64,000 bases of DNA. Source: Escherichia coli. GTDB taxonomy: Bacteria; Pseudomonadota; Gammaproteobacteria; Enterobacterales; Enterobacteriaceae. The stretch lies in NCBI RefSeq assembly GCF_030013595.1, contig NZ_CP122768.1; one strand, written 5' to 3'. The position numbers and the translations under genes were made by a program. This document shows positions 1,521 through 46,249 of this stretch, one piece after another (position 1 is the first letter of the stretch; every line of letters begins with the position of its first letter). The notes beneath the pieces were generated by a model. It had not been told where the DNA came from and made no database searches. It was given only the letters and a program-made list of their open reading frames with translations.

Positions 1521-1597
1521 CGAATCACCTCACTATAAAACAGGAATAAGGGAGGCGTTAACCTCCCAACGTTCATGTTTTATTTAGGTACGCAATC

Positions 1598-2431: not shown

Positions 2432-2440
2432 TATTACCCC

Positions 2441-2911
2441 TTAAAAACGCGCTAGATAAGAAAATTTAAGGCTAAGTGTCCCAACGATACCCCCATCACT
2501 AGAATCATCGTCATAATCGGTATTAGAAGCTACTGGAGTGATATCTGAAATTGAGAAGCCCAAATCTTTAAAACGTGGGTTATCCGGCTGAATCTGGATT
2601 ATCTGGCAAATACCCTCATGAATTTTGGTTTCATGAATCTGAGAATACAATTGCATTTCGATAACGCATTCAGCTTGCATTGCATTACCGCCACGGACCC
2701 TATTGTAAGTCTCATTCATTCCGGTGATCCAACAAACCACGTCATCACTAAAGCCTTGCTGAGTTTGTTCTACGTTTAAAGCCAGACCTAAATCTTGTTC
2801 GATAATATCCTGCAAGGCGCGTTTGATTTTCAGTCTAGGCATATTATTAACGGTAGCGAGCATGTGTACCCCCTGCCAGAGTGATAAAGCAATCAGTTGT
2901 ATTGTCACCAT
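2441..2911 (-). CDS. Hypothetical virion morphogenesis/neck protein (156 aa as tracked; more likely ~140 aa from ATG at 2863)
   Basis: ORF track; internal ATG at 2861-2863 has a GGGGG SD, first ATG has none; sits in the head-tail module. Confidence 0.4.
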   Translation of the reverse strand: MVTIQLIALSLWQGVHMLATVNNMPRLKIKRALQDIIEQDLGLALNVEQTQQGFSDDVVCWITGMNETYNRVRGGNAMQAECVIEMQLYSQIHETKIHEGICQIIQIQPDNPRFKDLGFSISDITPVASNTDYDDDSSDGGIVGTLSLKFSYLARF

Positions 2912-3137
2912 TGCGCTTAACGTATTGAACTTTGAAACGCTGATTTTCTACAGTGACAATATCACCCTGCTTTAAGTCTCCCTCACGACAAAATAGAAAT
3001 TCTGTCTCTGTCATTACCCCTGATTCGTCGGTAGTAGTAATTTCATGATAAGCACGAATTGATTTACCACCTTCCACCGAAAATACAGGAGCACTTCGGA
3101 ACATTCTTGATAATTGTGATTCTGATAATTTGAACAT
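2847..3137 (-). CDS. Putative head-tail adaptor/joining protein, 96 aa
   Basis: ORF track; AAGGGGG SD; size and position immediately after capsid gene. Confidence 0.35.
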   Translation of the reverse strand: MFKLSESQLSRMFRSAPVFSVEGGKSIRAYHEITTTDESGVMTETEFLFCREGDLKQGDIVTVENQRFKVQYVKRNGDNTTDCFITLAGGTHARYR

Positions 3138-3165
3138 AGTTACCCCCTTTATGGAGTATTTACAT

Positions 3166-3194
3166 ACAAAAAAGCCCCACCGTTAGGCAGGGCT
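3166..3194 (-). terminator. Rho-independent terminator/attenuator after capsid gene
   Basis: Minus-sense hairpin AGCCCTGCCTAACGGTGGGGCT followed by T-run; same hairpin family recurs at 9845-9872 and 16351-16380. Confidence 0.5.
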
Positions 3195-3212
3195 AATTAT
3201 TATTTTGCTTTC

Positions 3213-3232
3213 GGTGGACGTCCCACCTTTTT
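3213..3232 (+). terminator. Plus-strand hairpin plus T-run (antisense terminator)
   Basis: GGTGGACGTCCCACC followed by TTTTT inside a minus-strand operon. Confidence 0.35.
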
Positions 3233-3286
3233 AGCTGTGGCTTTCGCCGTAACTACCGGAATTTCTTCCGGCAATTCTTCGTTATT

Positions 3287-5293
3287 TCACTCTTCGCCAA
3301 TTTTCAGAACTTTCAGAGCTTCCGGCTGTGCTACAACGTAGTCCAAATCTACAAAGATACGAGGCACTACCGCACCACGGTCACGGTATGTAGTTAGATC
3401 CATATCCAGTTCCAGACCGCCCCACTCACCGATGGTAATACCGGAGAAGTCACCCAGAACGATGTGGTCTGCCGGAATAACGCCAGAAGTAACTACTTCG
3501 TAACCAGCCAGTTTGCCGTTTTCGATGATATAACCGGAAACGCCGTTATCTTTCAGGGTAGATTCCAGTTCGGCAGCAGTTGCACCGCTCATTGCAAACT
3601 TGATCGCCTGAGCAGGAACGCCAGCGTCGGTCAGTGCTGCAATTTCTTTCAGGAAGTCTTTATAAGAGAAAGCAGCTTTCTTGGTAACGCGGCTAGCGTC
3701 TACCAGTTGCTTAACCAGACCAGCCGGACCACGAGCATTTTCTTTATCAGACAGAATCAGTTGTTCCAGTTTGATACGAACAGCTTTGTTAATGTGATCA
3801 GTGATCAGGGTAGCGATGCCCGGAACGGTTTTCAGCGACTGACGGCTGATCGGGTTGCCACCAGCAAAAGTTTTCGGAGACAGTTTCACGTTCGCAAATT
3901 CAGCTTTGCTTTCCGGTGCAGCACCGTTTTCATCAACGAAGCCGAAAGCGTCAACGCTGGAAGCGGTCATTTTTGGAATAGCGGTCGGGGAGTTCAAGCC
4001 ACTGTAAACAGTCACACCCAGACGACCCAGACACGAAGCAGGAAGCAGCATTTCGATGTAGGATTCAGTCATCAGTTTTTCGTCAGTGATAGCGGTCAGG
4101 TCGGCTTTGGTGTTACCAGCAGAAGCAGCACGCAGAGCAGCAGCCGGAACGAATACAGAGCCACCACGAGCAGCACGACCACGCTGCATAGTTGCAGTAG
4201 CAGCCATTGCGGAATATTCAGCTTCGTTAGCGCCGAGCACGTCGCCATCTACCAGGGAGCGGATTACGTTATTAAGATCGAAAGTTTTTTCCATGATTTG
4301 TTCCTTATTAATTTGTTCGTTATTACGTTGAGCATTGGTAATGTTATTTAGTGCCTTAGTGCGGAATGCTTCCGGCGTCATGTCTTTAATTGCCAATGCG
4401 CGTGCTAATTCAGAGTCATCAATATTTAGTTCGCGTGCAATTTCGCGAATTTCTAATTCGTCTTCTTCGGAACGTTCAGCCACTTCCTCGGTTTTTTCTT
4501 CTTCAACCGGAGCGGCTTCACGTTCTTCTTTTACTTCTTCTGTTTCCCGAACAGTTGAACTATCATCATCAACACTTTCAGGATGTTCAGCGTCTTTTCC
4601 GTCTTCGAGATTTTCATCTTCTTTATTCTCTTCAACTTGGCGCTCTTGAGTTTCTTCAACTTCCGGTTCTTTATTTTCTTCTACCGGAGTTTCTTCAACC
4701 TGAGCGGCTTCTTGTTCTTCTTTGATTTCTTCGATTTGTTCTTTAGTCATATCGCGTTTAGCCCCCAAATTAACTGTGATAGTATTTAGAGAGCGATTTA
4801 AACCGACCGTATCGTCTGCGGGCACCGACACCCATGAAATCTCGTGAGGAATCCATTTAGAAACAATGAGTTGCGATTTAGCGTAGTCGATGTGATATTC
4901 TTTAATGTCATAACCGACAGAAATTTTTTCCATCGTACCTTCAATGACTTTATTGCGAATATCATTAGCCAAAGTGCCATGCTTAGAGAATCTAACGGTC
5001 GCACGGCCTACGTTATCCGCATCGATTCGAGCGTTACAAACGACACCAATGTGATTATCGAAATTGTGATTGAACAGCAACGGAGCGTTATTATTCAGAC
5101 GAGACAGATCAACCGCTTCCGGTGTATGTACCAGAATTTCATCTAATACCACCATTTCTTGATTTTGCTCATCCCAAAATTGGCGCTGATAAGGCTGTGT
5201 ACTTGAGAAAGCAATTTCAAATTCGTATTGATCGTTATGCCCTTCATTAATAACTCCACCGTAACCGTTAAGATCGCGGCGAAATTTAAGCAT
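3287..5293 (-). CDS. Prohead protease / scaffold-like acidic linker / major capsid protein fusion (HK97-like), 668 aa
   Basis: ORF track; N-terminal ~170 aa protease-like (LLFNHNFDNHIGVV), central Glu/Lys-rich repeat segment, C-terminal ~370 aa capsid-like; SD AAAGGTGA. Confidence 0.7.
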   Translation of the reverse strand: MLKFRRDLNGYGGVINEGHNDQYEFEIAFSSTQPYQRQFWDEQNQEMVVLDEILVHTPEAVDLSRLNNNAPLLFNHNFDNHIGVVCNARIDADNVGRATVRFSKHGTLANDIRNKVIEGTMEKISVGYDIKEYHIDYAKSQLIVSKWIPHEISWVSVPADDTVGLNRSLNTITVNLGAKRDMTKEQIEEIKEEQEAAQVEETPVEENKEPEVEETQERQVEENKEDENLEDGKDAEHPESVDDDSSTVRETEEVKEEREAAPVEEEKTEEVAERSEEDELEIREIARELNIDDSELARALAIKDMTPEAFRTKALNNITNAQRNNEQINKEQIMEKTFDLNNVIRSLVDGDVLGANEAEYSAMAATATMQRGRAARGGSVFVPAAALRAASAGNTKADLTAITDEKLMTESYIEMLLPASCLGRLGVTVYSGLNSPTAIPKMTASSVDAFGFVDENGAAPESKAEFANVKLSPKTFAGGNPISRQSLKTVPGIATLITDHINKAVRIKLEQLILSDKENARGPAGLVKQLVDASRVTKKAAFSYKDFLKEIAALTDAGVPAQAIKFAMSGATAAELESTLKDNGVSGYIIENGKLAGYEVVTSGVIPADHIVLGDFSGITIGEWGGLELDMDLTTYRDRGAVVPRIFVDLDYVVAQPEALKVLKIGEE

Positions 5294-25973: not shown

Positions 25974-27629
25974 TTAACTCATCACGCGGTCGTCAACATA
26001 CTGACGTTTATCCGGCGCTGGCGGGAAATACTGATACAGCCATGTTTCACTGATAGCGTCGCCCTGACAACGCAGATACATCCGCATATCGACCGGATCA
26101 GTGGAGTCCGAAGTCGGATACCAGTCAAACTGAATACGATAACCATCAATGGGTTCAATATAGAGAATTTCGATTTGCTTCGCTTCCCCACTGGAAAGCG
26201 TAATCACCGGCTCAATGCCTTTTGGTGCGGCAGCTTTCAGATCACCACCAACGAAATCGACGGCAAAACGACGCGCCCATTTTTCGGGATAGTGTTCACC
26301 TGGCGCCCAACCTTCCGGGAAACCGCCCATGCCGGTACGCGTCGCCATAACGCGCGCTAATGGGCAATGAACAGGCGGTTGCGCACTCCAGTACAGACGA
26401 TACTGGAATGCAAACTCATCACCCGCTTTTACAGCTTTTTCTGGCTGCCAGAAGCAGACAATGTTATCCAGCGTTTCACCCGTAGTTGGGATTTCCATCA
26501 GGCCGATGGTGCCCTTACCCCACTTGTTACGCGGTTCCACCCACAGACTTGGGCGTTTGTTATACCAGCCCATAATGTCCTGATAATGAGAGAAATCACG
26601 ATCCAGTTGCAATAAACCAAACCCTTTCGGGTTGTTGTCGGTGTAAGCATTGAACTGCAATTTTTGCGGATTGCTCAGCGGACGGCAAATCCACTCGCCG
26701 TTGCCCCGCCACATGGACAGACGATCAGAGTCATGGATTTGCGGATGAATGGTGTCGCACATCCGACGTTCATTAGTACCGCAGCTGAACATGCTGGTCA
26801 TCGGCGCAATGCCCAGCTGTTTAATGTCTTTGCGCGCATACAGGTGATTTTCCACATCCATAATCACCTGACTTTTCTCACAATGGATAGTGAACTTATA
26901 GGCACCAGTAATGCTGGTGCTATCGAGCAACGCATAAACGGTAAAGGTGGTTGCCCCCGGTTTTACCGTATCAAACCAGAAGGCGGTAAAGTCGGGGAAC
27001 TCTTCTTTACTGTCGGTGTAAGTGTCGATCGCCAGGCCGCGAGCCGATAGACCGTATTGATATGTGTCGTCAACGGCGCGGAAATAACTCGCACCGAGGA
27101 ATGATACTACATCACGGCGCGCCAGTTCGGGGGCTTTAAACACGCGAAAACCGGCAAAACCGAGATCGCTTTGCCCTTCTAATTGTTTGGTATCAACACC
27201 CGCATCGTTGTATTTGAACAACTCCGGGCGAAAGTGAATTTCACGCGCCAGATGTGTTGCGGGATCAACAGAAAACATACGAACGCGGCGACGGAAACCC
27301 ATTCCCATATGGAAGAACTGAGCGTCCAGTTGACGGTTCTCAACGTTATGCCAGAGCGATTTTTCGGCGTCGTATTGAATACTGTTATAAGCCTGCGGCG
27401 TCATTGTCGCCAGAGTGTCAGGTAACGGACGCGGCGCACCACGCCACGCGGTTTGCGCTAAGTCGTGCGCCATTGACTGTAGAATGGAGAAGTCAAAACG
27501 CTGGGTTTGCCCGTCGGCAATATCAGAATCTGCCGCGAATGCCGCCTGAGAAAAAAGAGAAGCAATGCCGCTGGTACCGCACACGGCGGCCATAGCCATT
27601 GAACCTTTAATAAATCGTCTACGATCCAT
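25974..27629 (-). CDS. opgD: Glucans biosynthesis protein D (OpgD/MdoD), 551 aa, Tat signal
   Basis: ORF track; [10 protein letters not shown] twin-arginine leader. Confidence 0.85.
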
Positions 27630-27853
27630 ACCTGAAAGTGAGTCCTTCTGGTGTTGTGAATGGTCCCGCGCTGGTCGTTTTCAGCGGCAAGAAAGTGCTT
27701 ATTTATGACCGCTCACTCTAGACAATATTTATTAATAATCCAATTGTTGAACTCAGAGAATATGCATTAATCGGCAATTTTTTTATGTCGATGGGATGAG
27801 CCTGATTCGTTTGTAAAATCAGGCAAATTTTTGCAAAGGCGGATGGTCAGAAT

Positions 27854-29197
27854 TTAAAGCAAACCACAGCGACGTTTACTGCGATCTTCCGCTTCCTGAT
27901 AAAGCTGGAACTCATCCAAAACCGGGCAGCCCAACGCCTGCTCAAATGTTTCGCGACTGGCATTACCGTGACTGCGTGCCTGCGTTTCATTACCCAGATT
28001 TGACTGGAAGATCCCCGCCGCGCTAACGGGCAAGAAATCTTCATAGGTAATGGGTTGCGCCACTACCCAACCACGTTCAATTAAGGGCTGTGGATCGTCT
28101 CCGGGATGAATCGCCTGACGATGCGCCTCACCCGAAGGCGTCAGACGGTACCGGAACCATGCCAGCCCTTGCTGACGCATTAAAAACTCACTGTCAGGAA
28201 AAGCGCGGAAGGTTTCCTGTAAATGCATTTGGTGAGTGAGATTATCCTGCCCGGTTCCAGCGTTCCGCAGTAGATCATCATACAGTTGTCGTCCTTTCGG
28301 CGTTAATGCCACGCCACGCTGCTCTATTTCACCAAAGCGCGCGGTATGCGTGCCCTGTTTCTGCCCTGCAAACAACACCGTCTCTTCCAGTGCTTTAAAG
28401 CTGGTCTGGCGTAGTAAAATAGGTACCTCGCGGCGCGGCGGCCCTTCGATCAGAATTTTGGGTTCAATCCCGCATTCAGGCATCATCGACTGCACCCGGT
28501 CAATATCCAGCGTGCGTGGCGTCAGGTGGTTGATATGGCATCCAGGAAAACAGACCACATCAGCAATCAGCCGATGTTCGTTATGCAAGGCGCGATAGGT
28601 TACTTCATCCACCGTTGCTGACTGGTGCCAGCGAAACGTTTCCAGGGCTTCCTGCACAAACTCCTGTGCCTGTGTTTCGTTAAAACCGCCCCGCTGCTCA
28701 TATTCCTCTAACAGTTGTCGACAACGTGGGGTGAAGATATCGCGCTGACGCAGAATCTCCGCTGCTTTCTGGCGCAAAAATTCGTTCTCGATAAGCTCAA
28801 GGCGGAGTAATGAGGTAAAAATGCGGAAGGGATTACGCGCCAGAGAAGCATCATCAATGGGCCGAAATGCTGTGGAATGTACCGGCACTCCCGCCTGCGA
28901 GAGATCGTAATAGCTCACCGGGTACATCCCCATAATGGCAAACATCCGCCGAAGAGTAGCAAGCTCTTGTGCAGTCCCAACGCGAATCGCCCCATGACGT
29001 TCAACATTCAGTCGCGCCAGCTCGTCTGCATTTACCATTTTTTCGTGCAGTTGAGGATTGTTTTCCAGCACAGCCAGATTCACATCAGCTACCAGTTCCA
29101 GCAGCGTGCCGTACTGCGGAACTTCTTGCTGGTACATGGCTGACATTGCCTGCGAAAACTGTTCCCGAATCTCATCCGCCGTGATGCTGTTCGCCAT
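27854..29197 (-). CDS. ydcJ: Uncharacterised protein YdcJ, 447 aa
   Basis: ORF track; size and synteny. Confidence 0.7.
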   Translation of the reverse strand: MANSITADEIREQFSQAMSAMYQQEVPQYGTLLELVADVNLAVLENNPQLHEKMVNADELARLNVERHGAIRVGTAQELATLRRMFAIMGMYPVSYYDLSQAGVPVHSTAFRPIDDASLARNPFRIFTSLLRLELIENEFLRQKAAEILRQRDIFTPRCRQLLEEYEQRGGFNETQAQEFVQEALETFRWHQSATVDEVTYRALHNEHRLIADVVCFPGCHINHLTPRTLDIDRVQSMMPECGIEPKILIEGPPRREVPILLRQTSFKALEETVLFAGQKQGTHTARFGEIEQRGVALTPKGRQLYDDLLRNAGTGQDNLTHQMHLQETFRAFPDSEFLMRQQGLAWFRYRLTPSGEAHRQAIHPGDDPQPLIERGWVVAQPITYEDFLPVSAAGIFQSNLGNETQARSHGNASRETFEQALGCPVLDEFQLYQEAEDRSKRRCGLL

Positions 29198-29413
29198 AAT
29201 GTCTGCCTCCAGTGGTCAGTAATCTGGAGTGTAGGTAACCGCATTCACTCTGGCGGGAAGAATTTGCAAACTGTGATCTCGCCGCGAAAACATTAATATT
29301 ATCCATTTTGATGTAATACAATTGCTTTAATTGTTAATAATATTTTGCAATCAAGTTATCATAATCAAACAACTTCACTTGTCAGCGACACCGCTTCGTT
29401 TTTAACATCGCTT

Positions 29414-30337
29414 ATGGAAAAAAATAGTCTGTTTAGTCAGCGCATCCGTTTGCGCCACCTTCATACATTCGTAGCTGTCGCACAACAAGGAACTTTGGGG
29501 CGCGCGGCTGAAACCCTTAATTTGAGTCAACCTGCGCTCTCTAAGACATTGAATGAACTGGAGCAACTGACGGGCGCTCGCTTGTTTGAGCGTGGTCGTC
29601 AGGGGGCGCAACTTACCTTACCCGGCGAACAATTTTTAACGCATGCAGTCAGAGTTCTTGACGCCATCAACACTGCCGGACAGTCGCTTCATCGTAAAGA
29701 AGGTCTTAATAATGATGTCGTCAGGGTTGGTGCACTACCTACTGCGGCACTGGGGATATTACCTTCGGTTATAGGTCAGTTTCATCAGCAACAAAAAGAG
29801 ACGACCTTGCAAGTTGCGACAATGAGTAACCCTATGATTCTGGCGGGTTTGAAAACCGGGGAAATCGATATCGGCATTGGTCGGATGTCAGATCCTGAAC
29901 TGATGACCGGGCTTAATTACGAACTGCTGTTTCTTGAATCGCTGAAGCTGGTTGTCCGCCCTAATCATCCGCTACTTCAGGAGAACGTAACGCTAAGCCG
30001 GGTGCTGGAATGGCCGGTCGTTGTATCACCAGAAGGCACTGCGCCACGCCAGCATTCAGATGCATTAGTGCAGAGCCAGGGATGTAAAATTCCTTCGGGT
30101 TGTATCGAAACGCTGTCTGCTTCGCTATCTCGTCAACTTACGGTTGAATACGATTACGTGTGGTTTGTCCCTTCTGGCGCTGTAAAAGACGACCTGCGTC
30201 AAGCCACGCTGGTGGCCCTGCCTGTTCCTGGACATGGTGCAGGCGAACCGATTGGAATACTGACCCGCGTAGATGCAACGTTCTCTTCTGGTTGCCAGTT
30301 GATGATTAACGCTATTCGAAAATCAATGCCGTTCTGA
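29414..30337 (+). CDS. ydcI: LysR-family transcriptional regulator, 307 aa
   Basis: Start MEKNSLFSQRIRLRHLHTF.. inside tracked ORF 29345..30337; LysR HTH. Confidence 0.75.
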   Translation: MEKNSLFSQRIRLRHLHTFVAVAQQGTLGRAAETLNLSQPALSKTLNELEQLTGARLFERGRQGAQLTLPGEQFLTHAVRVLDAINTAGQSLHRKEGLNNDVVRVGALPTAALGILPSVIGQFHQQQKETTLQVATMSNPMILAGLKTGEIDIGIGRMSDPELMTGLNYELLFLESLKLVVRPNHPLLQENVTLSRVLEWPVVVSPEGTAPRQHSDALVQSQGCKIPSGCIETLSASLSRQLTVEYDYVWFVPSGAVKDDLRQATLVALPVPGHGAGEPIGILTRVDATFSSGCQLMINAIRKSMPF

Positions 30338-30374
30338 AAGGTGAAGGGATCTGTCGATCCCTCCTTTAACATTT

Positions 30375-32015
30375 TCACACCGTAGCGAAACTAACTGGTT
30401 TACCAACTCCGCGAGGTTCTGCCGACACAGAATGTTTGTTCAGACGGAATACGTCCACCGCCTCAGTTAATCGTGCAGCCTGTTCTTCAAGGGACACCGC
30501 CGCCGCTGAGGCCTCTTCTACCAGAGAAGCATTCTGTTGCGTCACCTTATCCATTTCAGAAATCGCCTGGCTAACCTGAGTTATGCCTCTACTTTGTTCA
30601 TCCGAGGCGGCGGCGATTTCCTGCATGATATGTGTGACACTCGCGACGGCATCAACAATAGTGCTCATGGTTTTCCCTGCCGTTGCCACCTCATCCGACC
30701 CCAGGTCAATTAACCTGACTGATTCACTGATCAAGCCTTCAATCTCTTTCGCCGCCTGAGCGCTGCGGCTTGCGAGTGTCCGTACTTCGCTGGCGACAAC
30801 GGCAAATCCACGCCCTTGCTCACCCGCTCGCGCGGCTTCAACGGCAGCATTCAGTGCCAGAATATTCGTCTGGAAAGCAATACTGTTGATGACGGCGGTG
30901 ATCTCAGAAATTTTCTTCGAACTCGTGGAGATAGCGCCCATCGTTTTTACTACACCGGAAACCGTCTGCCCGCCATCGCTGGCTTTAATAGAAGCCTCTT
31001 GCGCCAGTTTGCTGGCATGATGCGCGTTATCCGCATTCTGTTTCACCGTCGCAGTAAGTTGCTCCATGCTGGCGGCAGTTTGTTCGATAGCCGCCGCTTG
31101 TTCTTCGGTGCGAGATGACAGGTCCGCATTGCCAGCTGAAATTTCGCTGGTGCCACGATAAATCTCTTCCGCACCCTGTCGAACAGTCCCTACTGTCATC
31201 CCCAGTGAATGCTGCATTTGCTGTAAATGACGACTTAAGCGACCGATTTCATTACGACCCGCCGGTTCATCATTCATCGTCAGATCGCCACTGGCGATTT
31301 TTTCAATCCGTTGTGCGGCATGTTGCAGTGGACGAATGACGATCCGACGTAGCACTATAAATGTTATCAGCGTCATGACCAGGGCAAGCACAAACGCGCC
31401 AATCATGAACATCCCACCCAGGCGGGTGCGCTGATGGGCCAGTTCCGCCAGTTGGTTGGCTCTGGCGCTACGTATCTTAACGGCTTTGCTCAAAATATCG
31501 GTATAAGCATTATCCAGCGGTCGGATCTGCTCACTTTCATGATTGATAATCGCTTCAAACATGCCATTTTTGGCATATTTCAACATCGGTTGCATACCCG
31601 TGATATAAGCCTGGAAGCGTTGATTTAATTCAGTGTCGAGGGCTTCATCAGCAGGTGTTTTCACCGACCGATTCTGATAAGCACGATAACCTTGCTGCGA
31701 CTGTTTAATCTCCGATTCGGCTTGCGCAATATTTCGCTTCATTGCTTCCAATTCCGCAATACGACTCGCAGCACCGGCCTGAATCATATTGATCCGGGCT
31801 GAACGCAAAAAATCTGAACTGTTCGCTAACCCGGTCCGAATCTCAATCTCCGCAGTAACATCCCGCTGATCGCGATCGGCCTGCCAAAGGAAATAGCCGG
31901 CCAGGGCTGAACTTAATGCGAATAGAACTAAGATACCGCCAAGAATGCAGGCAAATAACGGAACCAGCCTGATGTGATGCAAAAAACCTAATCGCTGTGA
32001 GGGAGTTGTATTCAT
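30375..32015 (-). CDS. trg: Methyl-accepting chemotaxis protein III (ribose/galactose sensor), 546 aa
   Basis: ORF track; MCP signalling domain. Confidence 0.9.
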
Positions 32016-32355
32016 TACCGTTGTCTCTCGTCCAGGTTTACTCCTGATAGAAAGTCATCGGCACTTGACGGTAATTACTTATGACCAAAAACCTCTTTGC
32101 GTCACATTTTTACAACAATTATGGCAGAGAAAATTAATGCTATTGGAATGAAGAGAGTAACGAATGGCTAAACTGGCTAACCCGAATGACGAAAAATTCT
32201 GGAAAACAGCACGCAATTTCGTCAGGTGATTATTTTCGTCCCTAAGGAAACCACATAGGATGCTCACGGGTGCCTGAGACTTTCTGTTTTCAGGCTAACC
32301 GGGAATCAGAAAGACGAAGGCCCCGACCGATATTTCTATCAACCGAGGCCAACGA

Positions 32356-32563
<208 letters not shown>

Positions 32564-32634
32564 GGGCAAGCGCGGGGATTTTCCCCGCGCATCTGACTAG
32601 CAGATTCATTTTCTCATGGCACCCCTTTTACACT

Positions 32635-32787
32635 TCAGTTAGTGCATGTTTTTTTCGATGCACTAATAGAACCATCATTACAGACAAATTTGCCGCCTGC
32701 CGTACAGTGTGAGATCCCCCCTTTCGAACCAGAACAGGGTTTGCGCCCGGCATCGGCAAAAAAGGAAACAAGCGCTCCTATAACCAA
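32635..32787 (-). pseudogene. ydcA: ydcA-like small Cys-rich protein ORF with disrupted 5' end
   Basis: Minus frame encodes ..[43 protein letters not shown]; the only ATG (at ~32798) is in another frame and hits a stop after 6 codons. Confidence 0.3.
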
Positions 32788-33042
32788 GATGTTTTCATAT
32801 AACCTCCATGGTTTATCGAATCTTATGTTCGATTTGAACGTTATACGCTGGTTTATTTTGATACCGTTGATGAGATCAAAGATCGGGTGAATTGATTAAA
32901 GATAAGCCAGATGGACGTATGGATAAGGATTATGGTTTTATTTGTCATACAAATAAATATAATAGGCGCTTCCGATGTAGACCCGTATTCTTCGCCTGTA
33001 CCACGGGTCGGTTTTAGTACAGGCGTTTTCTTTAAATATCCT

Positions 33043-33573
33043 TCAGGAACGTTTACGCGGCATCATGCGTAGAAGTGTGTTGTCCTTCCAGAAATAGTGG
33101 TGTGCCAGTGCAGCCGCAGCGTGCAACCCGATGACAAAATATCCCAGATTCGCCAGCATTTCATGCCACGACTTTAAGCTATCAACCCGTTCGAAATTGG
33201 CCTCTGATGCATAAGGCATCGTCAAACCAAACGCAAACCACGGGTTGCCTCGGTTATACATCATCACCAAACCAATCACTGGCAGCGCAATAAACAGGAG
33301 ATAAATCACCAAATGTCCCAAATGCGCCAGTCCCGTCATCATCGGTTTTGGCTTAGGTATAATCGGCGGGGTTGGGTATTTCAGCCTTAACAAAAGACGA
33401 ACGACCATCAGCACGAGAATTGATATGCCACAGGAAACATGAATCATGTTGATGAGTGGCCGATCGCTACGTGGGAAGAAACCCCGAAACTCCATTGCGC
33501 AATACGCTGCGATAACCAGCATAAAGACCAGCCAGTGAATGCTGATTTGTAACCTTGAGTATTTATTTCCCAT
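33043..33573 (-). CDS. cybB: Cytochrome b561, 176 aa
   Basis: Start MGNKYSRLQISIHW.. inside tracked ORF 33043..33609. Confidence 0.85.
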   Translation of the reverse strand: MGNKYSRLQISIHWLVFMLVIAAYCAMEFRGFFPRSDRPLINMIHVSCGISILVLMVVRLLLRLKYPTPPIIPKPKPMMTGLAHLGHLVIYLLFIALPVIGLVMMYNRGNPWFAFGLTMPYASEANFERVDSLKSWHEMLANLGYFVIGLHAAAALAHHYFWKDNTLLRMMPRKRS

Positions 33574-33761
33574 AACATTTCCTGCTTTAACATAATTTTC
33601 CGTTAACATAACGGGCTTTTCTTAAAATTTCATTAAATATTGTTCACCCGTTTTCAGTACGTTACGTTTCACGGCAAGAATGTAGATTGCCCATCCCGCC
33701 ATCCTGGTCTAAGCCTGGAAAGGATCAATTTTCATCCGAACGTTCCTGACAGGAGAAGACC

Positions 33762-34763
33762 ATGAGTAAAGTTGGTATTAACGGTTTTGGTCGTATCGGT
33801 CGACTGGTGTTGCGTCGATTACTTGAAGTCAAAAGCAACATAGACATTGTCGCTATTAATGATCTCACTTCCCCAAAAATTCTCGCCTACCTGCTGAAAC
33901 ATGATTCAAACTACGGACCATTCCCCTGGAGCGTTGATTTTACGGAAGATTCACTTATCGTTGATGGAAAAAGTATCGCGGTTTACGCCGAAAAAGAGGC
34001 TAAAAATATTCCATGGAAAGCGAAAGGCGCAGAAATCATTGTCGAATGTACTGGCTTTTATACCTCCGCCGATAAATCGCAGGCGCACCTTGATGCTGGT
34101 GCGAAGAAGGTGTTGATTTCCGCCCCTGCCGGTGAAATGAAAACCATCGTTTATAACGTCAATGACGACACACTGGATGGCAACGACACCATTGTTTCCG
34201 TGGCGTCATGCACCACTAATTGTCTTGCACCGATGGCCAAAGCCTTGCACGACAGTTTCGGAATAGAAGTCGGCACGATGACGACCATTCATGCCTATAC
34301 CGGCACTCAGTCACTGGTGGATGGCCCGCGTGGTAAAGATTTACGTGCTTCACGCGCAGCGGCAGAAAATATCATTCCCCACACTACGGGGGCGGCAAAA
34401 GCCATTGGTCTGGTGATCCCGGAACTGAGCGGCAAACTGAAAGGTCATGCGCAACGCGTACCCGTGAAAACAGGTTCGGTGACTGAACTGGTGTCTATTC
34501 TTGGAAAAAAAGTGACTGCCGAAGAGGTGAACAACGCGCTTAAAAAGGCGACAAACAATAATGAGTCATTTGGTTATACCGATGAAGAAATAGTCTCTTC
34601 CGATATCATTGGCAGCCATTTCGGTTCGGTGTTTGATGCCACGCAAACGGAAATTACCGCCGTGGGCGATTTACAGCTGGTGAAAACGGTCGCCTGGTAC
34701 GATAACGAATATGGCTTCGTCACACAGCTCATTCGCACCCTCGAAAAATTCGCTAAACTCTGA
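33762..34763 (+). CDS. gapC: Glyceraldehyde-3-phosphate dehydrogenase C, intact 333 aa
   Basis: ORF track; NAD-binding [10 protein letters not shown] and active site [10 protein letters not shown]. Confidence 0.85.
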
Positions 34764-34803
34764 CGCACACAGGCGGAGGAAAAACCTCCGCCTCTTCCAC
34801 TCA

Positions 34804-36243
34804 TTAAGACTGTAAATAAACCACCTGGGTCTGCAGATATTCATGCAGGCCATGTTTACCATCTGCGCCGCCAATACCGGATTTACGCCATCCGGCGTGG
34901 AAGCCTTGCATAGCTTCGAAGTTTTCACGGTTGATGTAAGTTTCACCAAACTTCAGCCCTTTAATGGCTTTCATCGCGACGTTCAGATTTTGGGTATAGA
35001 TTGATGAGGTCAGGCCGTAATCACTGTCATTCGCCATTGCGATAGCATCTTCCAGCGTGTCAAATGCGACCACCGGCAGAACCGGGCCAAAGGTTTCCTC
35101 ATGCATAATCGACATTTCCTGGCGAACATCCAGCAGCAATGTCGGCGGATAATAATATCCTTTCCCCTCTACCGCTTTGCCACCCAACGCCACTCTCGCC
35201 CCTTCTTCTACTGCGCGCGCCACTTTTTGCTCGACCCTTTCCAGCGCCGCGGCGTTAATCAACGGCCCCATCGCAATGTCGTTGCGTTCTGCGGGGTTAC
35301 CAAATTGAACCGCCTGCAACGCTTCACCCAGCCGATTGACGAACTGATCATAAATGCCTTTCTGTACATAAACACGTTCTGCACAGTTACACACTTGCCC
35401 ACTATTAATGACGCGTGAATCAACGATGGCTTTGACTGCCAGTTCAAGATCGGCATCGTCCATTACGATAGCTGGTGCTTTACCCCCCAATTCCAGGCAC
35501 ACTTTGGTGATGTTTTTCGCCGCAGTCGCCATGATCTTTTCACCTGCAGAGACGCTGCCTGTCATACTGACCATTGCGACCTTTGGGTTACCCGCCAGTT
35601 CTTGCCCAACGGTTTCACCACGCCCCAGAACAAGGTTAAACACGCCGCGCGGAAGGCCTATTTCATCGACGATTTTGGCGAATGCAATCGCATTGTTTGG
35701 CGTAAATTCACTGGGTTTAATGACAATGGTATTACCAGTCAAAAGAGCGGGAGCCATTTTGCGGGCAATGAGGAAGAACGGGAAGTTCCACGGCAGAATG
35801 CCGGTAGTCACACCAAGCGCACGTTTAAACAGAAGAATATTTTCTCCTGGACGATCGCTTTGAATAATCTCGCCCTCGTAACGCCGTGCCCACTCCGCCA
35901 TGTAATCGATATAGTCCGCAGTAAAAGCCACTTCGACTTCAGCCAGCTGCTGGATCTTGCCCCCTTCTTCAACAATCAGCGCACTGATTTCACTGGCGCG
36001 TTCGCGGATCCCGGCGGAGATTTTGCGCAACCAACTGGCGCGTTCAATGGCAGGCAACGCTTCCCATTCTGGTTGTGCACGTTCTGCTGCATCGATTGCC
36101 TTACGGGCATCCTCGGCCTGACCATCGGGAATGCGGGAAATGACAACCTCAGTAGCAGGGTTTACCACATCAATCCATGCGTCTCCACGCCAGGTAACAA
36201 ACTGTCCATCGATATACATAGGATGTTGAACGGGTACTGACAT
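34804..36243 (-). CDS. aldA: Lactaldehyde/aldehyde dehydrogenase A, 479 aa
   Basis: ORF track; ALDH motifs. Confidence 0.9.
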   Translation of the reverse strand: MSVPVQHPMYIDGQFVTWRGDAWIDVVNPATEVVISRIPDGQAEDARKAIDAAERAQPEWEALPAIERASWLRKISAGIRERASEISALIVEEGGKIQQLAEVEVAFTADYIDYMAEWARRYEGEIIQSDRPGENILLFKRALGVTTGILPWNFPFFLIARKMAPALLTGNTIVIKPSEFTPNNAIAFAKIVDEIGLPRGVFNLVLGRGETVGQELAGNPKVAMVSMTGSVSAGEKIMATAAKNITKVCLELGGKAPAIVMDDADLELAVKAIVDSRVINSGQVCNCAERVYVQKGIYDQFVNRLGEALQAVQFGNPAERNDIAMGPLINAAALERVEQKVARAVEEGARVALGGKAVEGKGYYYPPTLLLDVRQEMSIMHEETFGPVLPVVAFDTLEDAIAMANDSDYGLTSSIYTQNLNVAMKAIKGLKFGETYINRENFEAMQGFHAGWRKSGIGGADGKHGLHEYLQTQVVYLQS

Positions 36244-36439
36244 GGGCGACTCCTGTGATTTATATGTTTGTTTTCGGTGAATACATTGTTAATTAACATC
36301 AATCATCAAAGAGACGGCATCGTGAAAGGACAATTCTGTGAAGGGCTTCATAAAAACAAGTGTAAAAGGAATAAAAGGCAGAAATAAACGTCAGGAGTCA
36401 TGCCCGTTTGCAAACAAGTGGTTCACAAACGGGCAATTT

Positions 36440-37240
36440 TTAACGTAACGAGCGACTTTCCATCGCCTCGATGAGCACCGCATCGTGTTTCAGCGTTTGC
36501 CATGCATGGATGACTTCTGCCGGAAAATCAACGTGAACGATAAAATCTCGCCCGCGGGGACCGTAGCCATCGCTATCATCGCGTAAACGCGGCAGCTCGC
36601 CAGTGAGTAGTGAGAGATAACGCTCAACCGGCCATAATCCTTGCAACGGATTAACAAAGATTACACTGTCTGCGTTGTTTCCTAGCTGAGGAACGAATCC
36701 GGGATAACTTAACCAGCGTGGTGCATCGGGATTGTCCCCAGTCATACGGCGGAACGTCGCCATCGTGCGCCGCTGCATGGTGGGGTCCTGAACAACGATA
36801 GCCGTATGAACTCGTTCTACGGCCTGATTCAATAGCGCGATGCTAAAGCGTGCGTTTTCACCGCAGTTTGTTGACTGGTCTTCAATCCAGATTTTTTCAT
36901 GCGGAATGTGCCAGAACTGATGAGCGATATCCGCCAGGATGGTAGCTTCTGCTCTGCCAGTGGTGCGGATAGTGTTGTAGTGCGGATGCTGTGCGATGGC
37001 ACTATACAAAAAAGTTGTCGAGTGACCGATACCACCACTAATCAGTAGAGGAATTTGCTGATCGCGGGCAATCTTGCATGCCGCATCGATAGTTGGCATA
37101 ACCGCATTGCCTGCAAGGATCACGCAATCGGCCTGATACGGCATCTCACCGGAGAAATCATCCTGCGCCAGCCACTGACCGATAACATTTATGGCATCTA
37201 TGGTTGCCGGCGAAAGCGTCGGAAACGGGGTAATGTTCAT
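36440..37240 (-). CDS. ydcF: DUF218-family protein YdcF, 266 aa
   Basis: ORF track; synteny. Confidence 0.7.
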
Positions 37241-37454
37241 GGTTCCTCCTTATCGTTTCCTTAAGAATACTGCGTGAGATAATAATGAGAAGCGGAGCAC
37301 TCTGAAAGGAGGAAGTCGTATTTCCTTAACCGCTACTCCGCAAGCCTGACATATCTTTTAAGGAAATGCTGTAGATAAACATTATTCATCTTGCAGCAGA
37401 GAATTGTATTTTTCTGAATTCCTGAATTTTTGCCCTTACCGTTTTAGAATTAAT

Positions 37455-37487
37455 AAAAAACCCGGCGCTAAATGCTTACCGGGTTTT
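37455..37487 (-). terminator. Rho-independent terminator downstream of hrpA
   Basis: AAAAAACCCGGCGCTAAATGCTTACCGGGTTTT. Confidence 0.55.
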
Positions 37488-37511
37488 AGATTTATCAGGC
37501 AAATAGCAGTG

Positions 37512-40500
37512 TTAACCGCTAATCTGCTCCATCGCCTGCAAAATACGCTTATCTGAAATCGGATAAGGCGTACCAAGTTGTTGAGCGAAGTAACTAACGC
37601 GCAGCTCTTCTATCATCCAGCGGATCTCTTTCACGTCTTCATCCTCACGACGTGCGGGCGGCAGTTTGTTGATCCATTGCTGCCACGCCTGCTGGACGTT
37701 TTCGACTTTCAGCATCTGAGCACGGTCACGATGCGGATCAACCGCCAGTTTTTCCAGTCGTTTTTCAATCGCCTGCAAATAACGCAGCGTGTCGCCCAGC
37801 CGTTTAAAACCGTTGCCAGTGACAAAACCGCGATACACCAACCCGCCCATCTGCGCTTTGATGTCAGAAAGCCCCAGCGCCATAGTCATATCCACCCGCC
37901 CTTTCAGGCGTTTGTTGATATTGAAGACTGCAGTAAGGATTTGCTCGACCTGCTTCGCAATATCCACCACCGTGTCGTTCAGTTCAGCGCGGACTTTTTC
38001 ATGCAGCGCAGCAAAGCCTTCTTCCGTCCAGACCGGGCCACCATTGGCGTCGATCAGTTGATCCACACCGCAGGAGATACAGTCGTCGATCAGCTCCAGC
38101 ACTTTGCCATACGGGTTAAAGTACAGCCCCAGCTTGGCTTTGTTTGGCAACTTCTCATGCAAATATTTGATTGGCGAGGGAATATTCAGCAGCAGTAGAC
38201 GGCGAAGACCGTTCCACATTGCCTGCTTTTGTTCCAGCGGATTATCAAACAGTTTGATCGCCACGCTGTCGCGTTCATCCACTAGCGCTGGCCACGCCTT
38301 CACTTTATAGTTGCCACGCTTCTGTTCGTAGCTTTCCGGCAGCTGACCAAAACTCCAGATATGTAAGCCGCTCTGCTCGATACCGTCATCCGCCACCGCA
38401 GACAGCGTTTCCTGCACTTTGCCTTTCAGCGCATCTTTCAGATCTTGTAGAGAGCGCCCTTCTTTTAGCTTCTTGTTTTTGTCATCCACCACGCGGAAGG
38501 TGATTTTCAGGTGATCAGGCACCTGATCCCAGTGCCAGTCTTCGCGGTCAACGGTAACGCCGGTCATCCGCCGTAACTCGCGCTCAAGGCTGTCGAGCAA
38601 CGGTAACTCCAGCGGTGTGACGCGGCCTAAAAACGCTTCGGCGTAGTTTGGCGCGGGCACAAAATTACGGCGTACCGGTTTCGGCAACGATTTAATCAAT
38701 GCGATGATCAGTTCACGACGCAGGCCGGGGATTTGCCATTCAAACCCGCTCTCTTCTACCTGATCAAGCAGCGGCAGCGGAATATGCACGGTCACACCGT
38801 CCGCGTCCGCGCCTGGCTCAAACTGATAGCTCAAACGCAGCTTGAGATTGCCCTGATGCCAGAAGTTCGGATAATCCAGCTTGCTGATTTTTTCCGCCCC
38901 TTCTTTGATCAACATGCTCTTTTCAAAGTTGAGCAAATCAGGCGTTTCGCGGCTGACTTTTTTCCACCAGCTGTCGAAGTGACGTGCGGAGATTACATCG
39001 TGGCTGATGCGCTGGTCGTAGAACTCAAACAACGTTTCGTCATCAACCAGAATATCGCGGCGACGTGATTTGTGTTCCAGCTCTTCCACTTCGGCCCGCA
39101 GTTTCAGGTTTTCACGGAAGAATGCGTGACGCGTCTGCCAGTCACCTTCCACCAGCGCGTGGCGAATAAAGAGTTCACGACATAACGCCGGATCGATCTG
39201 GCTGTAGTTGACCTTACGCGCAGCAACAATCGGCAAACCATAAACAGTGACTTTTTCCGTTGCCATCACCGCGCCCTGCGCCCGTTCCCAGTGCGGTTCG
39301 CTGTAGGTGCGTTTAATCAAATGCTGAGCAACGGGTTCTACCCATTCAGGGTCGATACGTGCCGCAATGCGCCCCCACAGGCGGCTGGTTTCTACCAGTT
39401 CCGCCACCATTACCCATTTCGGCGGCTTTTTAAATAAGCCGGAACCGGGGAAAATGGAGAAACGCGCGTTACGTGCGCCGGTATATTCTTGTTTATCGGC
39501 ATCTTTCATGCCGATATGGGAAAGCAAACCGGTCAGTAAGGCGATGTGAATTTCGCGATACTCCGCCGGTTCGCTGTTAACCGGAATGCCAAGTTCTTTC
39601 ACTACCTGACGCAACTGGGTGTAGATATCCTGCCATTCGCGCACGCGCAGATAGTTGAGATAATCGGTACGACACAGGCGACGGAAGGCGTTAGAAGAAA
39701 GCGCCTTTTGCTGCTCGCCGAGATAATTCCACAGATTTACAAACGCGAGGAAGTCGGATTCTTTGTCGTGGAAGCGGCGATGTTTTTCGTCCGATGCCTG
39801 CTGTCTATCCATCGGACGCTCGCGCGGATCCTGAATGGAGAGCGCGGACGTGATAATCATCGCCTCACGCACGCAGCCATGTTTTTGCGCTTCCAGCACC
39901 ATACGCGCCAGACGTGGGTCGACAGGCAACTGCGAGAGCTGGCGACCGAGCGGCGTCAGTTTATAGGCGCTGGCCTGTTCATCCGTGGTGATCGCGCCCA
40001 GTTCTTCGAGCAGACGCACGCCATCCTGGATATTGCGTTTATCCGGTGCTTCTACAAACGGGAATGCGGCGATATCGCCCAACCCCAGCGCGGTCATCTG
40101 TAAAATAACCGAGGCCAGGTTGGTACGCAGAATCTCCGGATCGGTAAACTCCGGGCGCGAGAGGAAATCGTCTTCGGAATAGAGACGAATACAGATCCCT
40201 TCGGACACACGACCACAGCGGCCTTTACGCTGATTGGCAGACGCCTGCGAAATGGGCTCAATCGGCAAACGCTGCACTTTAGTGCGATAGCTGTAGCGGC
40301 TGATACGCGCCGTACCTGGGTCGATAACGTATTTAATCCCCGGTACGGTCAGCGACGTTTCCGCGACGTTGGTCGCCAGCACAATGCGCCGTCCACTGTG
40401 CGACTGGAACACGCGGTTCTGTTCGCTGTTCGAAAGCCGCGCATAAAGCGGCAAGATTTCGGTATGGCGTAAGTTCAGCTTGTTCAGCGCATCGGCGGTA

Positions 40501-41414
40501 TCGCGAATTTCCCGCTCACCACTCATAAAGATCAGAATGTCGCCAGGGCTTTCCTGACTCAGTTCGTCTACGGCGTCAAAAATCGCCTGCAACTGATCGC
40601 GCTCGGTGTCATCGGCTTCTTCAACAATCGGGCGATAGCGCACTTCCACCGGATAGGTCCGACCGGAGACTTCGATAATCGGCGCATTATTAAAGTGGCG
40701 CGAAAAGCGTTCCGGGTCGATAGTCGCGGAAGTGATAATGATTTTTAGGTCAGGACGCCGCGGCAGCAACTCTTTCAAATAGCCGAGCAGAAAATCGATA
40801 TTCAGGCTACGTTCGTGCGCTTCGTCAATAATGATAGTGTCGTACTGCATCAGCAGGCGGTCTTGCTGGATCTCCGCCAGCAGGATACCGTCGGTCATCA
40901 GCTTGACCATCGTGTTATCACTTACGTGATCGCTGAAACGCACTTTGTAACCGATGCAACCGCCCGGCTCCGTTTTCAGCTCTTCCGCAATACGGTTCGC
41001 CACCGTTCGTGCCGCCAGGCGACGCGGTTGGGTATGACCGATCAGCCCTTTAATCCCGCGCCCCAGCTCCATACAGATTTTCGGTAGCTGAGTCGTTTTA
41101 CCGGAACCGGTTTCCCCGGCGACGATCACCACCTGGTGATCACGAATCGCGTCGAGAATGTCCTGCTTTTTCTGACTAACCGGCAAATTGTCGGGATAAG
41201 TGATTTCCGGTCGTGCCGCTTCACGCAGCAGTACTTTCCCTGCCGCCTGGTCAATCTCTTTCGCCATCTCCTGGAAAATGGCCTGTTGTGCATCAGGATT
41301 TTTAACCTTCTTAACACCGTGCAGACGGCGAGAAAAACGCTGTCTGTCGCGCAGCATCAGCGAATCCAGCCGCTGCTGCAAGGCCGTAAAGGTCAATTTT
41401 TGTTGTTCTGTCAT
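37512..41414 (-). CDS. hrpA: ATP-dependent RNA helicase HrpA, 1300 aa
   Basis: ORF track; DEAH-box motifs (GETGSGKT, DEAHER). Confidence 0.9.
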   Translation of the reverse strand: MTEQQKLTFTALQQRLDSLMLRDRQRFSRRLHGVKKVKNPDAQQAIFQEMAKEIDQAAGKVLLREAARPEITYPDNLPVSQKKQDILDAIRDHQVVIVAGETGSGKTTQLPKICMELGRGIKGLIGHTQPRRLAARTVANRIAEELKTEPGGCIGYKVRFSDHVSDNTMVKLMTDGILLAEIQQDRLLMQYDTIIIDEAHERSLNIDFLLGYLKELLPRRPDLKIIITSATIDPERFSRHFNNAPIIEVSGRTYPVEVRYRPIVEEADDTERDQLQAIFDAVDELSQESPGDILIFMSGEREIRDTADALNKLNLRHTEILPLYARLSNSEQNRVFQSHSGRRIVLATNVAETSLTVPGIKYVIDPGTARISRYSYRTKVQRLPIEPISQASANQRKGRCGRVSEGICIRLYSEDDFLSRPEFTDPEILRTNLASVILQMTALGLGDIAAFPFVEAPDKRNIQDGVRLLEELGAITTDEQASAYKLTPLGRQLSQLPVDPRLARMVLEAQKHGCVREAMIITSALSIQDPRERPMDRQQASDEKHRRFHDKESDFLAFVNLWNYLGEQQKALSSNAFRRLCRTDYLNYLRVREWQDIYTQLRQVVKELGIPVNSEPAEYREIHIALLTGLLSHIGMKDADKQEYTGARNARFSIFPGSGLFKKPPKWVMVAELVETSRLWGRIAARIDPEWVEPVAQHLIKRTYSEPHWERAQGAVMATEKVTVYGLPIVAARKVNYSQIDPALCRELFIRHALVEGDWQTRHAFFRENLKLRAEVEELEHKSRRRDILVDDETLFEFYDQRISHDVISARHFDSWWKKVSRETPDLLNFEKSMLIKEGAEKISKLDYPNFWHQGNLKLRLSYQFEPGADADGVTVHIPLPLLDQVEESGFEWQIPGLRRELIIALIKSLPKPVRRNFVPAPNYAEAFLGRVTPLELPLLDSLERELRRMTGVTVDREDWHWDQVPDHLKITFRVVDDKNKKLKEGRSLQDLKDALKGKVQETLSAVADDGIEQSGLHIWSFGQLPESYEQKRGNYKVKAWPALVDERDSVAIKLFDNPLEQKQAMWNGLRRLLLLNIPSPIKYLHEKLPNKAKLGLYFNPYGKVLELIDDCISCGVDQLIDANGGPVWTEEGFAALHEKVRAELNDTVVDIAKQVEQILTAVFNINKRLKGRVDMTMALGLSDIKAQMGGLVYRGFVTGNGFKRLGDTLRYLQAIEKRLEKLAVDPHRDRAQMLKVENVQQAWQQWINKLPPARREDEDVKEIRWMIEELRVSYFAQQLGTPYPISDKRILQAMEQISG

Positions 41415-41605
41415 AACGTTAGTGGGCAGTAGGCTGCCTGATTAATTTTCTTTTAAATGATAGATATAGAGTACCACATCGCGGCTTTCTATGCGTTGTT
41501 CAATAAATTCGAACATAGGCTTCGATTTATTGCGCTATCTCTGTGGCAGGATTGTGAATAAAGTGTCAGCAAGCAACGGGGCATCGCCCATTCAAACATC
41601 TATAA

Positions 41606-42220
<615 letters not shown>

Positions 42221-42234
42221 CCGGACACGATCTT

Positions 42235-42264
42235 GATGTGGACTGTAGATATTCAGTCCACATC
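42235..42264. terminator. Bidirectional terminator hairpin between azoR and ynbD
   Basis: GATGTGGACTGTAGATATTCAGTCCACATC. Confidence 0.45.
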
Positions 42265-42273
42265 TCAATCCGC

Positions 42274-45280
<3,007 letters not shown>

Positions 45281-45352
45281 CGCTGTATTATCACTGGTGG
45301 TAAAAAAATGTTCCCCAGGGATGCGTGAATTTTACATTTTCTCTATTTTCCT

Positions 45353-46249
45353 TCAGTAACAGCAGTAGCGAATAAAATAAAAAAATACCGGAGCGGTGAA
45401 AATTAATGAGTCAATCCTGTCAAGGAGTCCGCCATGTCCTGGTAATAGTTTTCCACTATCTTTAACACCAATATCTCGTTTGATGGCTGACATCACTACA
45501 TCGCCGCAAAAACCACTAATACCAATTAACAAACCCGCTAATAATGCCTGTAATGTATCTAGCGGTGTCAGCAACGGTCCAATAATCAGTGACGCAATCA
45601 TGGTGGTGATTACGCCGCCCATCAGACCTTCCAATGTTTTTCCCGGGCTGACTTTAGGGACCACTTTTCTTCTGCCGCAGGATTTTCCCCATAAATACTG
45701 TGCAATATCGTTTGACTCGGTTAATGCCAAAAGAAATAACACCAGTAACGCCCCGCCCTGGATATTTGTGGTTGGCAACATTAATAACCAGGCGGCATGA
45801 CTCAAGGCGAAAACGGTCATTATCCAGCCACAAAAAATGGCGCTCACGGTATGCAGAAAACCGGAGGGGTCACCCACTAAAACTCGCCAGGTGGCTAATA
45901 TCAGAAACCCAGCCAAAGGTATAAATAACAGAAACAGCTCAAAGCAATTAAAACCGATAAGCAAATAGTTAAGAGGAATACCCCAATATAACCAACGCGG
46001 AAAATGTACAGATATAAGCGTACAATATTCTTTCAATGCCAGAAAACTTATCAGCGCAAAAAACGTCAACGTCATCCAGCGTGGACCTGAAATCACCATT
46101 GAAAAACAAATGACGATGCCCCACCAGGTACGAATACGTAATGTAACTTCATCCCCTTTTCTCTCCGGTAACCGCCATACCAGAAAACGGTTTATCAGCG
46201 TTGCTAAAATTAACAACGCGAAAAGTGTTGCCAGAGATTTTTCCAGCAT
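45353..46249 (-). CDS. ynbB: CDP-diglyceride synthetase-like protein, 298 aa
   Basis: ORF track; CdsA-like C-terminal motif. Confidence 0.7.
   Translation of the reverse strand: MLEKSLATLFALLILATLINRFLVWRLPERKGDEVTLRIRTWWGIVICFSMVISGPRWMTLTFFALISFLALKEYCTLISVHFPRWLYWGIPLNYLLIGFNCFELFLLFIPLAGFLILATWRVLVGDPSGFLHTVSAIFCGWIMTVFALSHAAWLLMLPTTNIQGGALLVLFLLALTESNDIAQYLWGKSCGRRKVVPKVSPGKTLEGLMGGVITTMIASLIIGPLLTPLDTLQALLAGLLIGISGFCGDVVMSAIKRDIGVKDSGKLLPGHGGLLDRIDSLIFTAPVFFYFIRYCCY

Follow-up and report, generated by a model that had tools for sequence, protein, structure and literature searches.

Intact gapC in an Escherichia coli strain and its relation to the K-12 pseudogene and to the crystallised enzyme EcGAPDH1

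The gapC locus in the literature and in the window

The gapC gene of Escherichia coli K-12 MG1655 (b4493; formerly gapC_1/gapC_2, b1417/b1416) lies between cybB and aldA and is annotated as a pseudogene of 1001 bp. As cited in two later publications (PMC2949598; PMC1796617), Espinosa-Urgel and Kolter described an intact gapC from non-laboratory isolates in 1998; environmental isolates have the gene in intact form, and its expression is reported to be preferential in fresh water. The second of these publications regards gapC as a laterally acquired gene that is adaptive for survival in aquatic habitats (PMC1796617). In K-12, a ChIP-seq peak of sigma-S RNA polymerase is located between gapC_1 and cybB (PMC4447067). 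Transcripts of gapC are rpoS-dependent and increase under carbon limitation (PMC2759082; PMC4512719), and it has been speculated that the gene groups with gluconeogenic genes (PMC2759082). It has also been used as a qPCR marker of E. coli, in a study citing UniProt P58072 (the GapC of O157:H7) and Hidalgo et al., 1996 (PMC10614358). Citrobacter sp. S-77 has both gapA and gapC, and GapA is the purified and dominant glyceraldehyde-3-phosphate dehydrogenase (GAPDH) there (PMC6325607).

At the protein level, “EcGAPDH1” of E. coli has been purified and crystallised, and is an active NAD-dependent GAPDH with a KM of 0.73 mM for D-glyceraldehyde-3-phosphate (D-G3P) (Zhang et al., Biomolecules 2021; PMC8615399). 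The published in vitro assay was carried out at pH 10 and 50 °C. Mutation C150A abolishes the activity, and C150S and H177A cut it 10^3-10^4-fold; the structures hold NAD, phosphate, G3P, the thioacyl intermediate and 1,3-bisphosphoglycerate (1,3-BPG), and Asp34 is listed among the NAD ligands (PMC8615399). The same paper uses the name EcGAPDH1 without any use of the name gapC.

The window analysed here, a stretch of 64,000 nucleotides of E. coli DNA (contig NZ_CP122768.1), contains a gapC gene in the corresponding setting (Table 1). The order cybB (-), gapC (+), aldA (-) is the K-12 order in reverse orientation, which identifies the gene as the E. coli gapC orthologue, and gapA is not within the window. 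Just upstream of cybB, as in K-12, Rfam detects the small RNA RydC (92.5 bits) and, at 109.7 bits, sok, the antitoxin RNA of the type I toxin-antitoxin locus hokB/sokB. The mechanical list of open reading frames begins cybB at an in-frame ATG further upstream (33043-33609, -; 188 aa); with the annotated start at 33573, the protein has 176 aa and the cybB-gapC intergenic region is 188 bp long.

The Shine-Dalgarno sequence of gapC is unchanged in 6/6 diverse E. coli alleles, and 171 of the 188 columns of the intergenic region are invariant in an alignment of six alleles that includes K-12. A promoter scan found no sigma-70 consensus promoter within this region; the sole promoter-like match on the gapC strand (33567-33596) starts inside cybB. 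Because the scan gave no consensus match inside the intergenic region, we infer the position of the gapC promoter only as far as the 188-bp region itself. At the other end of the gene, the G+C-rich hairpin between gapC and aldA has a folding energy of -17.8 kcal/mol by RNA fold prediction. The terminator scan did not call this hairpin as a terminator, because it has no T-run; it is probably a shared terminator of the two convergent genes, a predicted function.

Table 1. Coordinates of features at and around the gapC locus in the window
Feature	Position	Strand	Remarks
gapC CDS	33762..34763	+	ATG to TGA, 333 aa + stop; NAD-dependent phosphorylating type I GAPDH
Shine-Dalgarno AGGAG	33751..33755	+	6 nt before gapC ATG; read from sequence
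gapC codon 39 (AAA, Lys)	33876..33878	+	site of K-12 nonsense TAA; alignment with b4493
A7 homopolymer run (gene nt 744-750)	34505..34511	+	site of K-12 deletion; alignment
cybB-gapC divergent intergenic region	33574..33761		188 bp; presumed site of gapC promoter
Hairpin AGGCGGAGG-AAAAA-CCTCCGCCT	34771..34793		G+C-rich; within the 40 bp that separate the stop codons of the convergent genes gapC and aldA
cybB (cytochrome b561 / superoxide oxidase)	33043..33573	-	divergent neighbour defining the locus; order as in K-12 and other E. coli
aldA (aldehyde dehydrogenase A)	34804..36243	-	convergent neighbour defining the locus; 479-aa ORF and synteny
sok RNA	32268-32419	+	Rfam
RydC RNA	32969-33032	+	Rfam
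YdcA-family gene	about 32636-32791	-	156 bp in this lineage (WP_064226499.1) vs 174 bp in K-12

Reading frame, family membership and active site

The original prediction placed a complete 333-aa GAPDH reading frame at this locus and described gapC as a pseudogene in K-12. Both statements agree with the present results, far better than could be expected by chance: the frame runs exactly from ATG to TGA, and b4493 bears two lesions in addition to its annotation. Direct alignment of the two genes reveals 33 differences in 1002 nt (96.7% nucleotide identity). The K-12 lesions are an A>T change at nt 115, which turns the AAA of codon 39 into the stop codon TAA, and, at nt 744-750, the loss of one base of the A7 run (to A6), which causes a frameshift; the window gene contains neither of them and is uninterrupted. 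K-12 gapC also differs by R18G, and the remaining differences are mostly located at third codon positions. In the two genomes closest to the strain, the gapC protein is annotated as intact under the name “gap” (WP_064226498.1), and the PGAP remark on gapC of a K-12-like strain reads “frameshifted; internal stop.” The allele of APEC O1:K1:H7 contains a synonymous G that breaks the A7 run (GGAAAGAAAGTG) and thus removes the slippage-prone homopolymer.

The GapC protein matches the TIGR01534 model of type I GAPDH (EC 1.2.1.12) at 446.2 bits against a cutoff of 367.2 (E = 7e-134), and the match spans residues 3-325 and model positions 1-330 of 330. The NAD-binding Rossmann domain (Pfam Gp_dh_N, PF00044; E = 9e-36) is located at residues 3-102 and the catalytic domain (Gp_dh_C, PF02800; E = 4e-58) at residues 155-313. 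The NAD-binding and catalytic-cysteine motifs that had been noticed in the translation were likewise found: the former comprises an N-terminal GxGxxG together with Asp34 (in AINDLT), the acidic residue at the end of beta-strand 2 that determines specificity for NAD+ and not NADP+, and the latter is S149-C150-T151-T-N-C, accompanied by His177. The phosphate-site residues Thr180, Thr182, Thr209, Gly210 and Arg232 are all present, and Arg11, Ile12, Asp34, Ser120 and Asn315 are kept as well. An inactivating substitution in the catalytic motif, which the original prediction had named as the observation that would speak against it, was looked for and is absent; all catalytic and ligand residues checked are conserved. 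Ala196, the counterpart of Arg195 in the Bacillus stearothermophilus enzyme, was considered as an inactivating change; this was rejected, since 7C5F, an active enzyme, has identical residues at this site. E. coli GapA presumably also lacks an arginine at the equivalent position.

A search of PDB sequences identified 7C5F, the structure of EcGAPDH1, as identical to the window GapC at 329 of 333 positions, ungapped and over the full length. The four substitutions (I29V, D104E, K262Q and N265T, from the window to 7C5F) are all non-catalytic. The translated gapC allele of O111:H8 is exactly the 7C5F sequence, and therefore the crystallised enzyme corresponds to a common natural GapC allele. “Arg78,” given as an NAD ligand in the description of the structures (PMC8615399), is Lys78 (in YAEKEAK) in both 7C5F and the window GapC; the mismatch probably reflects an error of numbering or typing in the publication, and the gapC gene studied here does not deviate at this residue.

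With a high degree of confidence, the window gene can be regarded as the intact ancestral gapC of E. coli, encoding a type I NAD+-dependent phosphorylating GAPDH (EC 1.2.1.12) that is a paralogue of GapA. By analogy with the structures of the nearly identical protein, the thiolate of Cys150 would attack C1 of glyceraldehyde-3-phosphate, His177 would help hydride transfer to NAD+ held by the Rossmann domain, and phosphate would then cleave the thioacyl-enzyme to release 1,3-bisphosphoglycerate. We infer that this allele is expressed and active in the strain, where it would probably serve as an auxiliary GAPDH that is induced by stress, in stationary phase or by the environment, and not as the main glycolytic enzyme.

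Distribution, loss and selection across E. coli genomes

The gapC locus was matched in 5417 of 5426 complete E. coli genomes. Alleles were counted with 40-mer probes centred on each lesion, for which megablast requires an exact word of 28 bases, so that a central mismatch yields no match; the resulting counts are lower bounds, as alleles with nearby SNPs are missed. The intact AAA allele at codon 39 was found in 3718/5426 genomes (69%) and the K-12 TAA allele in 1155/5426 (21%), and about 544 genomes match neither probe. At least some of the latter are intact alleles such as that of strain 319, in which two SNPs fall within the probe and the longest exact match is 23 bases, so that the share of genomes with an intact codon 39 is 69% or more. 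The K-12 A6 frameshift haplotype was found in 1049/5426 genomes (19%), and K-12 flanks with an intact A7 run in 0/5426. The absence of any match to the latter probe is read as a sign that the K-12 flanking haplotype always carries the A6 deletion, in preference to a reading as a failed search. As an independent check, full-length matches were taken at even intervals from the ranked list; 8 of these 39 rows, about 20%, have a match length of 1000-1001 bp.

The K-12 lesions are present in many isolates whose sources range over humans, pigs, cattle, poultry, dogs, an opossum, beach water, soil and sediment. Because about 21% (nonsense) and about 19% (frameshift) of the genomes are carriers and many of these are wild, the K-12 pseudogene derives from a natural lineage and was not born in the laboratory; as judged from this distribution among genomes, its lesions represent a natural polymorphism passed on clonally, and not the laboratory decay of which the literature speaks. 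Further, independent decay is also seen: strains S171-1 and ES1 contain a second 1-bp deletion in gapC at nt 988, and in strain SCPM-O-B-7615 an IS1A element has replaced the 3′ portion of gapC together with the terminal part of aldA. In total, about one in five E. coli genomes has lost gapC, through at least three different routes, and the gene is thus dispensable in some settings.

RefSeq annotates gapC as intact in every non-decayed genome inspected, including those of B2, B1 and other lineages. Intact gapC is the normal state of E. coli and that of the majority of genomes, is documented in publications from 1998 onwards, and is neither new nor special to this strain. The original prediction had suggested a functional second GAPDH “in this strain”; the functional part is upheld at the level of sequence, by the match to the active 7C5F enzyme and by the selection described below, and the strain-specific part is not. 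The only addition made here is a small, quantitative one, namely that the K-12 lesions are present in about a fifth of complete genomes.

Selection was evaluated with six alleles, those of the window, a food isolate, APEC O1:K1:H7, O111:H8, strain 319, and K-12 with its frameshift repaired. The dN/dS ratio (Nei-Gojobori) is 0.02-0.08 in 15/15 pairs, with dS up to 0.19; these ratios show, for the alleles compared, that gapC is under strong purifying selection in E. coli. The window GapC differs from the common alleles by 2-5 amino acids, and its D104 and K262 are absent from all five of the alleles with which it was compared. As a nucleotide allele it is rare, since alleles at least 99% identical to it were found in 4 of 5417 genomes. 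Over the 20 kb around gapC (26000-46000), 7 SNPs separate the window from its closest complete genome, that of the pig faecal isolate HCP5S3_I2, and the identity to strain 2012C-4221 is 99.3%. Because the next genomes are only about 98.3% identical and so few gapC alleles reach 99%, the strain is placed by these comparisons in a sparsely sampled lineage.

Five copies of gapC are recorded on “plasmids,” and mobility of the gene was considered on this account; it was rejected, as the E. coli records are mislabelled chromosomes of 4.8-4.9 Mb or large fragments of 250-385 kb that are non-mobilizable. A type I GAPDH gene with 74% nucleotide identity is present on two Pantoea megaplasmids, each about 0.5 Mb in size. 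In the neighbouring aldA gene, which is of full length in the window (479 aa), HCP5S3_I2 has a premature stop, Q473* (window position 34827, - strand), caused by one of the 7 SNPs, and is annotated seven codons short, so that the window stems from none of the genomes in the complete-genome collection; in the O111:H8 strain 08-4455, aldA is annotated as frameshifted beside an intact gapC. Together with the IS1 case, these observations suggest that aldA is also lost occasionally.

Alternative readings and comparison with known enzymes

Several explanations compete with that of an active auxiliary enzyme. The frame might be intact and gapC nevertheless silent or physiologically irrelevant, a cryptic gene awaiting disabling mutations in this lineage. 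Such a state would be in keeping with the repeated loss of the gene in E. coli (K-12-type lesions in about 20%, further decay and the IS1-associated deletion), with the scan that found no sigma-70 consensus promoter in the upstream intergenic region, and with the dominance of GapA in a related enterobacterium that has both genes (PMC6325607). However, dN/dS values this low over the observed range of dS are incompatible with neutral drift, the Shine-Dalgarno sequence and the promoter region are conserved, and the literature reports regulated expression (PMC4447067; PMC2759082; PMC2949598), so that a silent gapC appears quite unlikely. It is even harder to accept that the intactness is an artefact of sequencing or assembly, such as a miscounted A7 homopolymer. 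The K-12 frameshift does sit in a homopolymer, and homopolymers are error-prone on some platforms; yet the gene is identical in independently assembled genomes (100% over the gene in 2012C-4221, and without gapC differences in the pig isolates), 4/4 other intact alleles are in frame, three of them with A7 and that of APEC with a run of the same length containing its synonymous G, and the difference at codon 39 is a substitution and not an indel. An artefact can hardly be taken seriously on these grounds.

A further possibility is that the GAPDH fold serves another reaction here, as an erythrose-4-phosphate dehydrogenase (E4PD; Epd/GapB), an ArsJ-associated arsenate-handling enzyme, or an NADP-dependent or purely gluconeogenic GAPDH. 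GapC shows similarity to the E4PD models (276.3 bits with TIGR01532 and 279.6 with NF010058) and to that of the ArsJ-associated GAPDH (306.9 with NF033735), and a gluconeogenic grouping has been speculated (PMC2759082). These scores are nevertheless below the respective cutoffs of 530.55, 539 and 450, as opposed to the type I GAPDH cutoff, which is exceeded; arsJ is absent beside gapC, whose neighbours are cybB and aldA, and Asp34 is a residue of NAD specificity. Moreover, the 99%-identical enzyme uses NAD+ to oxidise G3P, and its structures contain bound G3P as well as 1,3-BPG and the thioacyl intermediate (PMC8615399). A different reaction is thus very improbable, and a type I NAD+-dependent GAPDH remains the preferred reading.

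It is also tempting to speculate, with considerable reservation, that gapC encodes a condition-specific GAPDH (induced by sigma-S or in fresh water), and that selection favours its loss, or tolerates it, in only some host-restricted sublineages of E. coli; this idea is rather unlikely. It draws on the K-12 haplotype shared by about 20% of complete genomes, many of them from wild isolates, and on the independent losses in other lineages. If it were correct, the K-12 pseudogene would be a natural ecotype marker, as opposed to a product of laboratory decay, and the rare D104/K262 allele would come from a lineage in which GapC still matters. The evidence shows that the gapC polymorphism is natural; loss of gapC might be adaptive, and the D104/K262 allele might differ in function. 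Regardless of this speculation, a second and in all probability active GAPDH, borne by most natural E. coli, is missing from K-12-based metabolic models and annotations; GapC should be considered in strain-specific models, in the design of gapA knockouts and in work that targets GAPDH in strains other than K-12.

Among the known enzymes, the E. coli GapC designated EcGAPDH1 (7C5F, 7C5G-R and 7C7K; UniProt P58072 of O157:H7; WP_000048667.1-type) is encoded by the same gene at the same locus. Its catalytic and ligand residues are the same as those of the window GapC, and the four substitutions between them are conservative or at the surface. The K-12 gene occupies the orthologous locus and differs by its interruption. 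GapA (b1779), the housekeeping glycolytic GAPDH, shares with GapC the type I family, the two-domain architecture and the catalytic Cys and His; by contrast, it is only 46% identical at the amino-acid level and is encoded at a different locus. No structure of E. coli GapA is among the 60 best PDB matches to GapC, which is nearer to solved GAPDH chains scoring 410-484 bits than to those at about 305-313 bits. Epd/GapB, the gamma-proteobacterial erythrose-4-phosphate dehydrogenase, has the same fold and a related sequence, whereas GapC falls far below both E4PD cutoffs.
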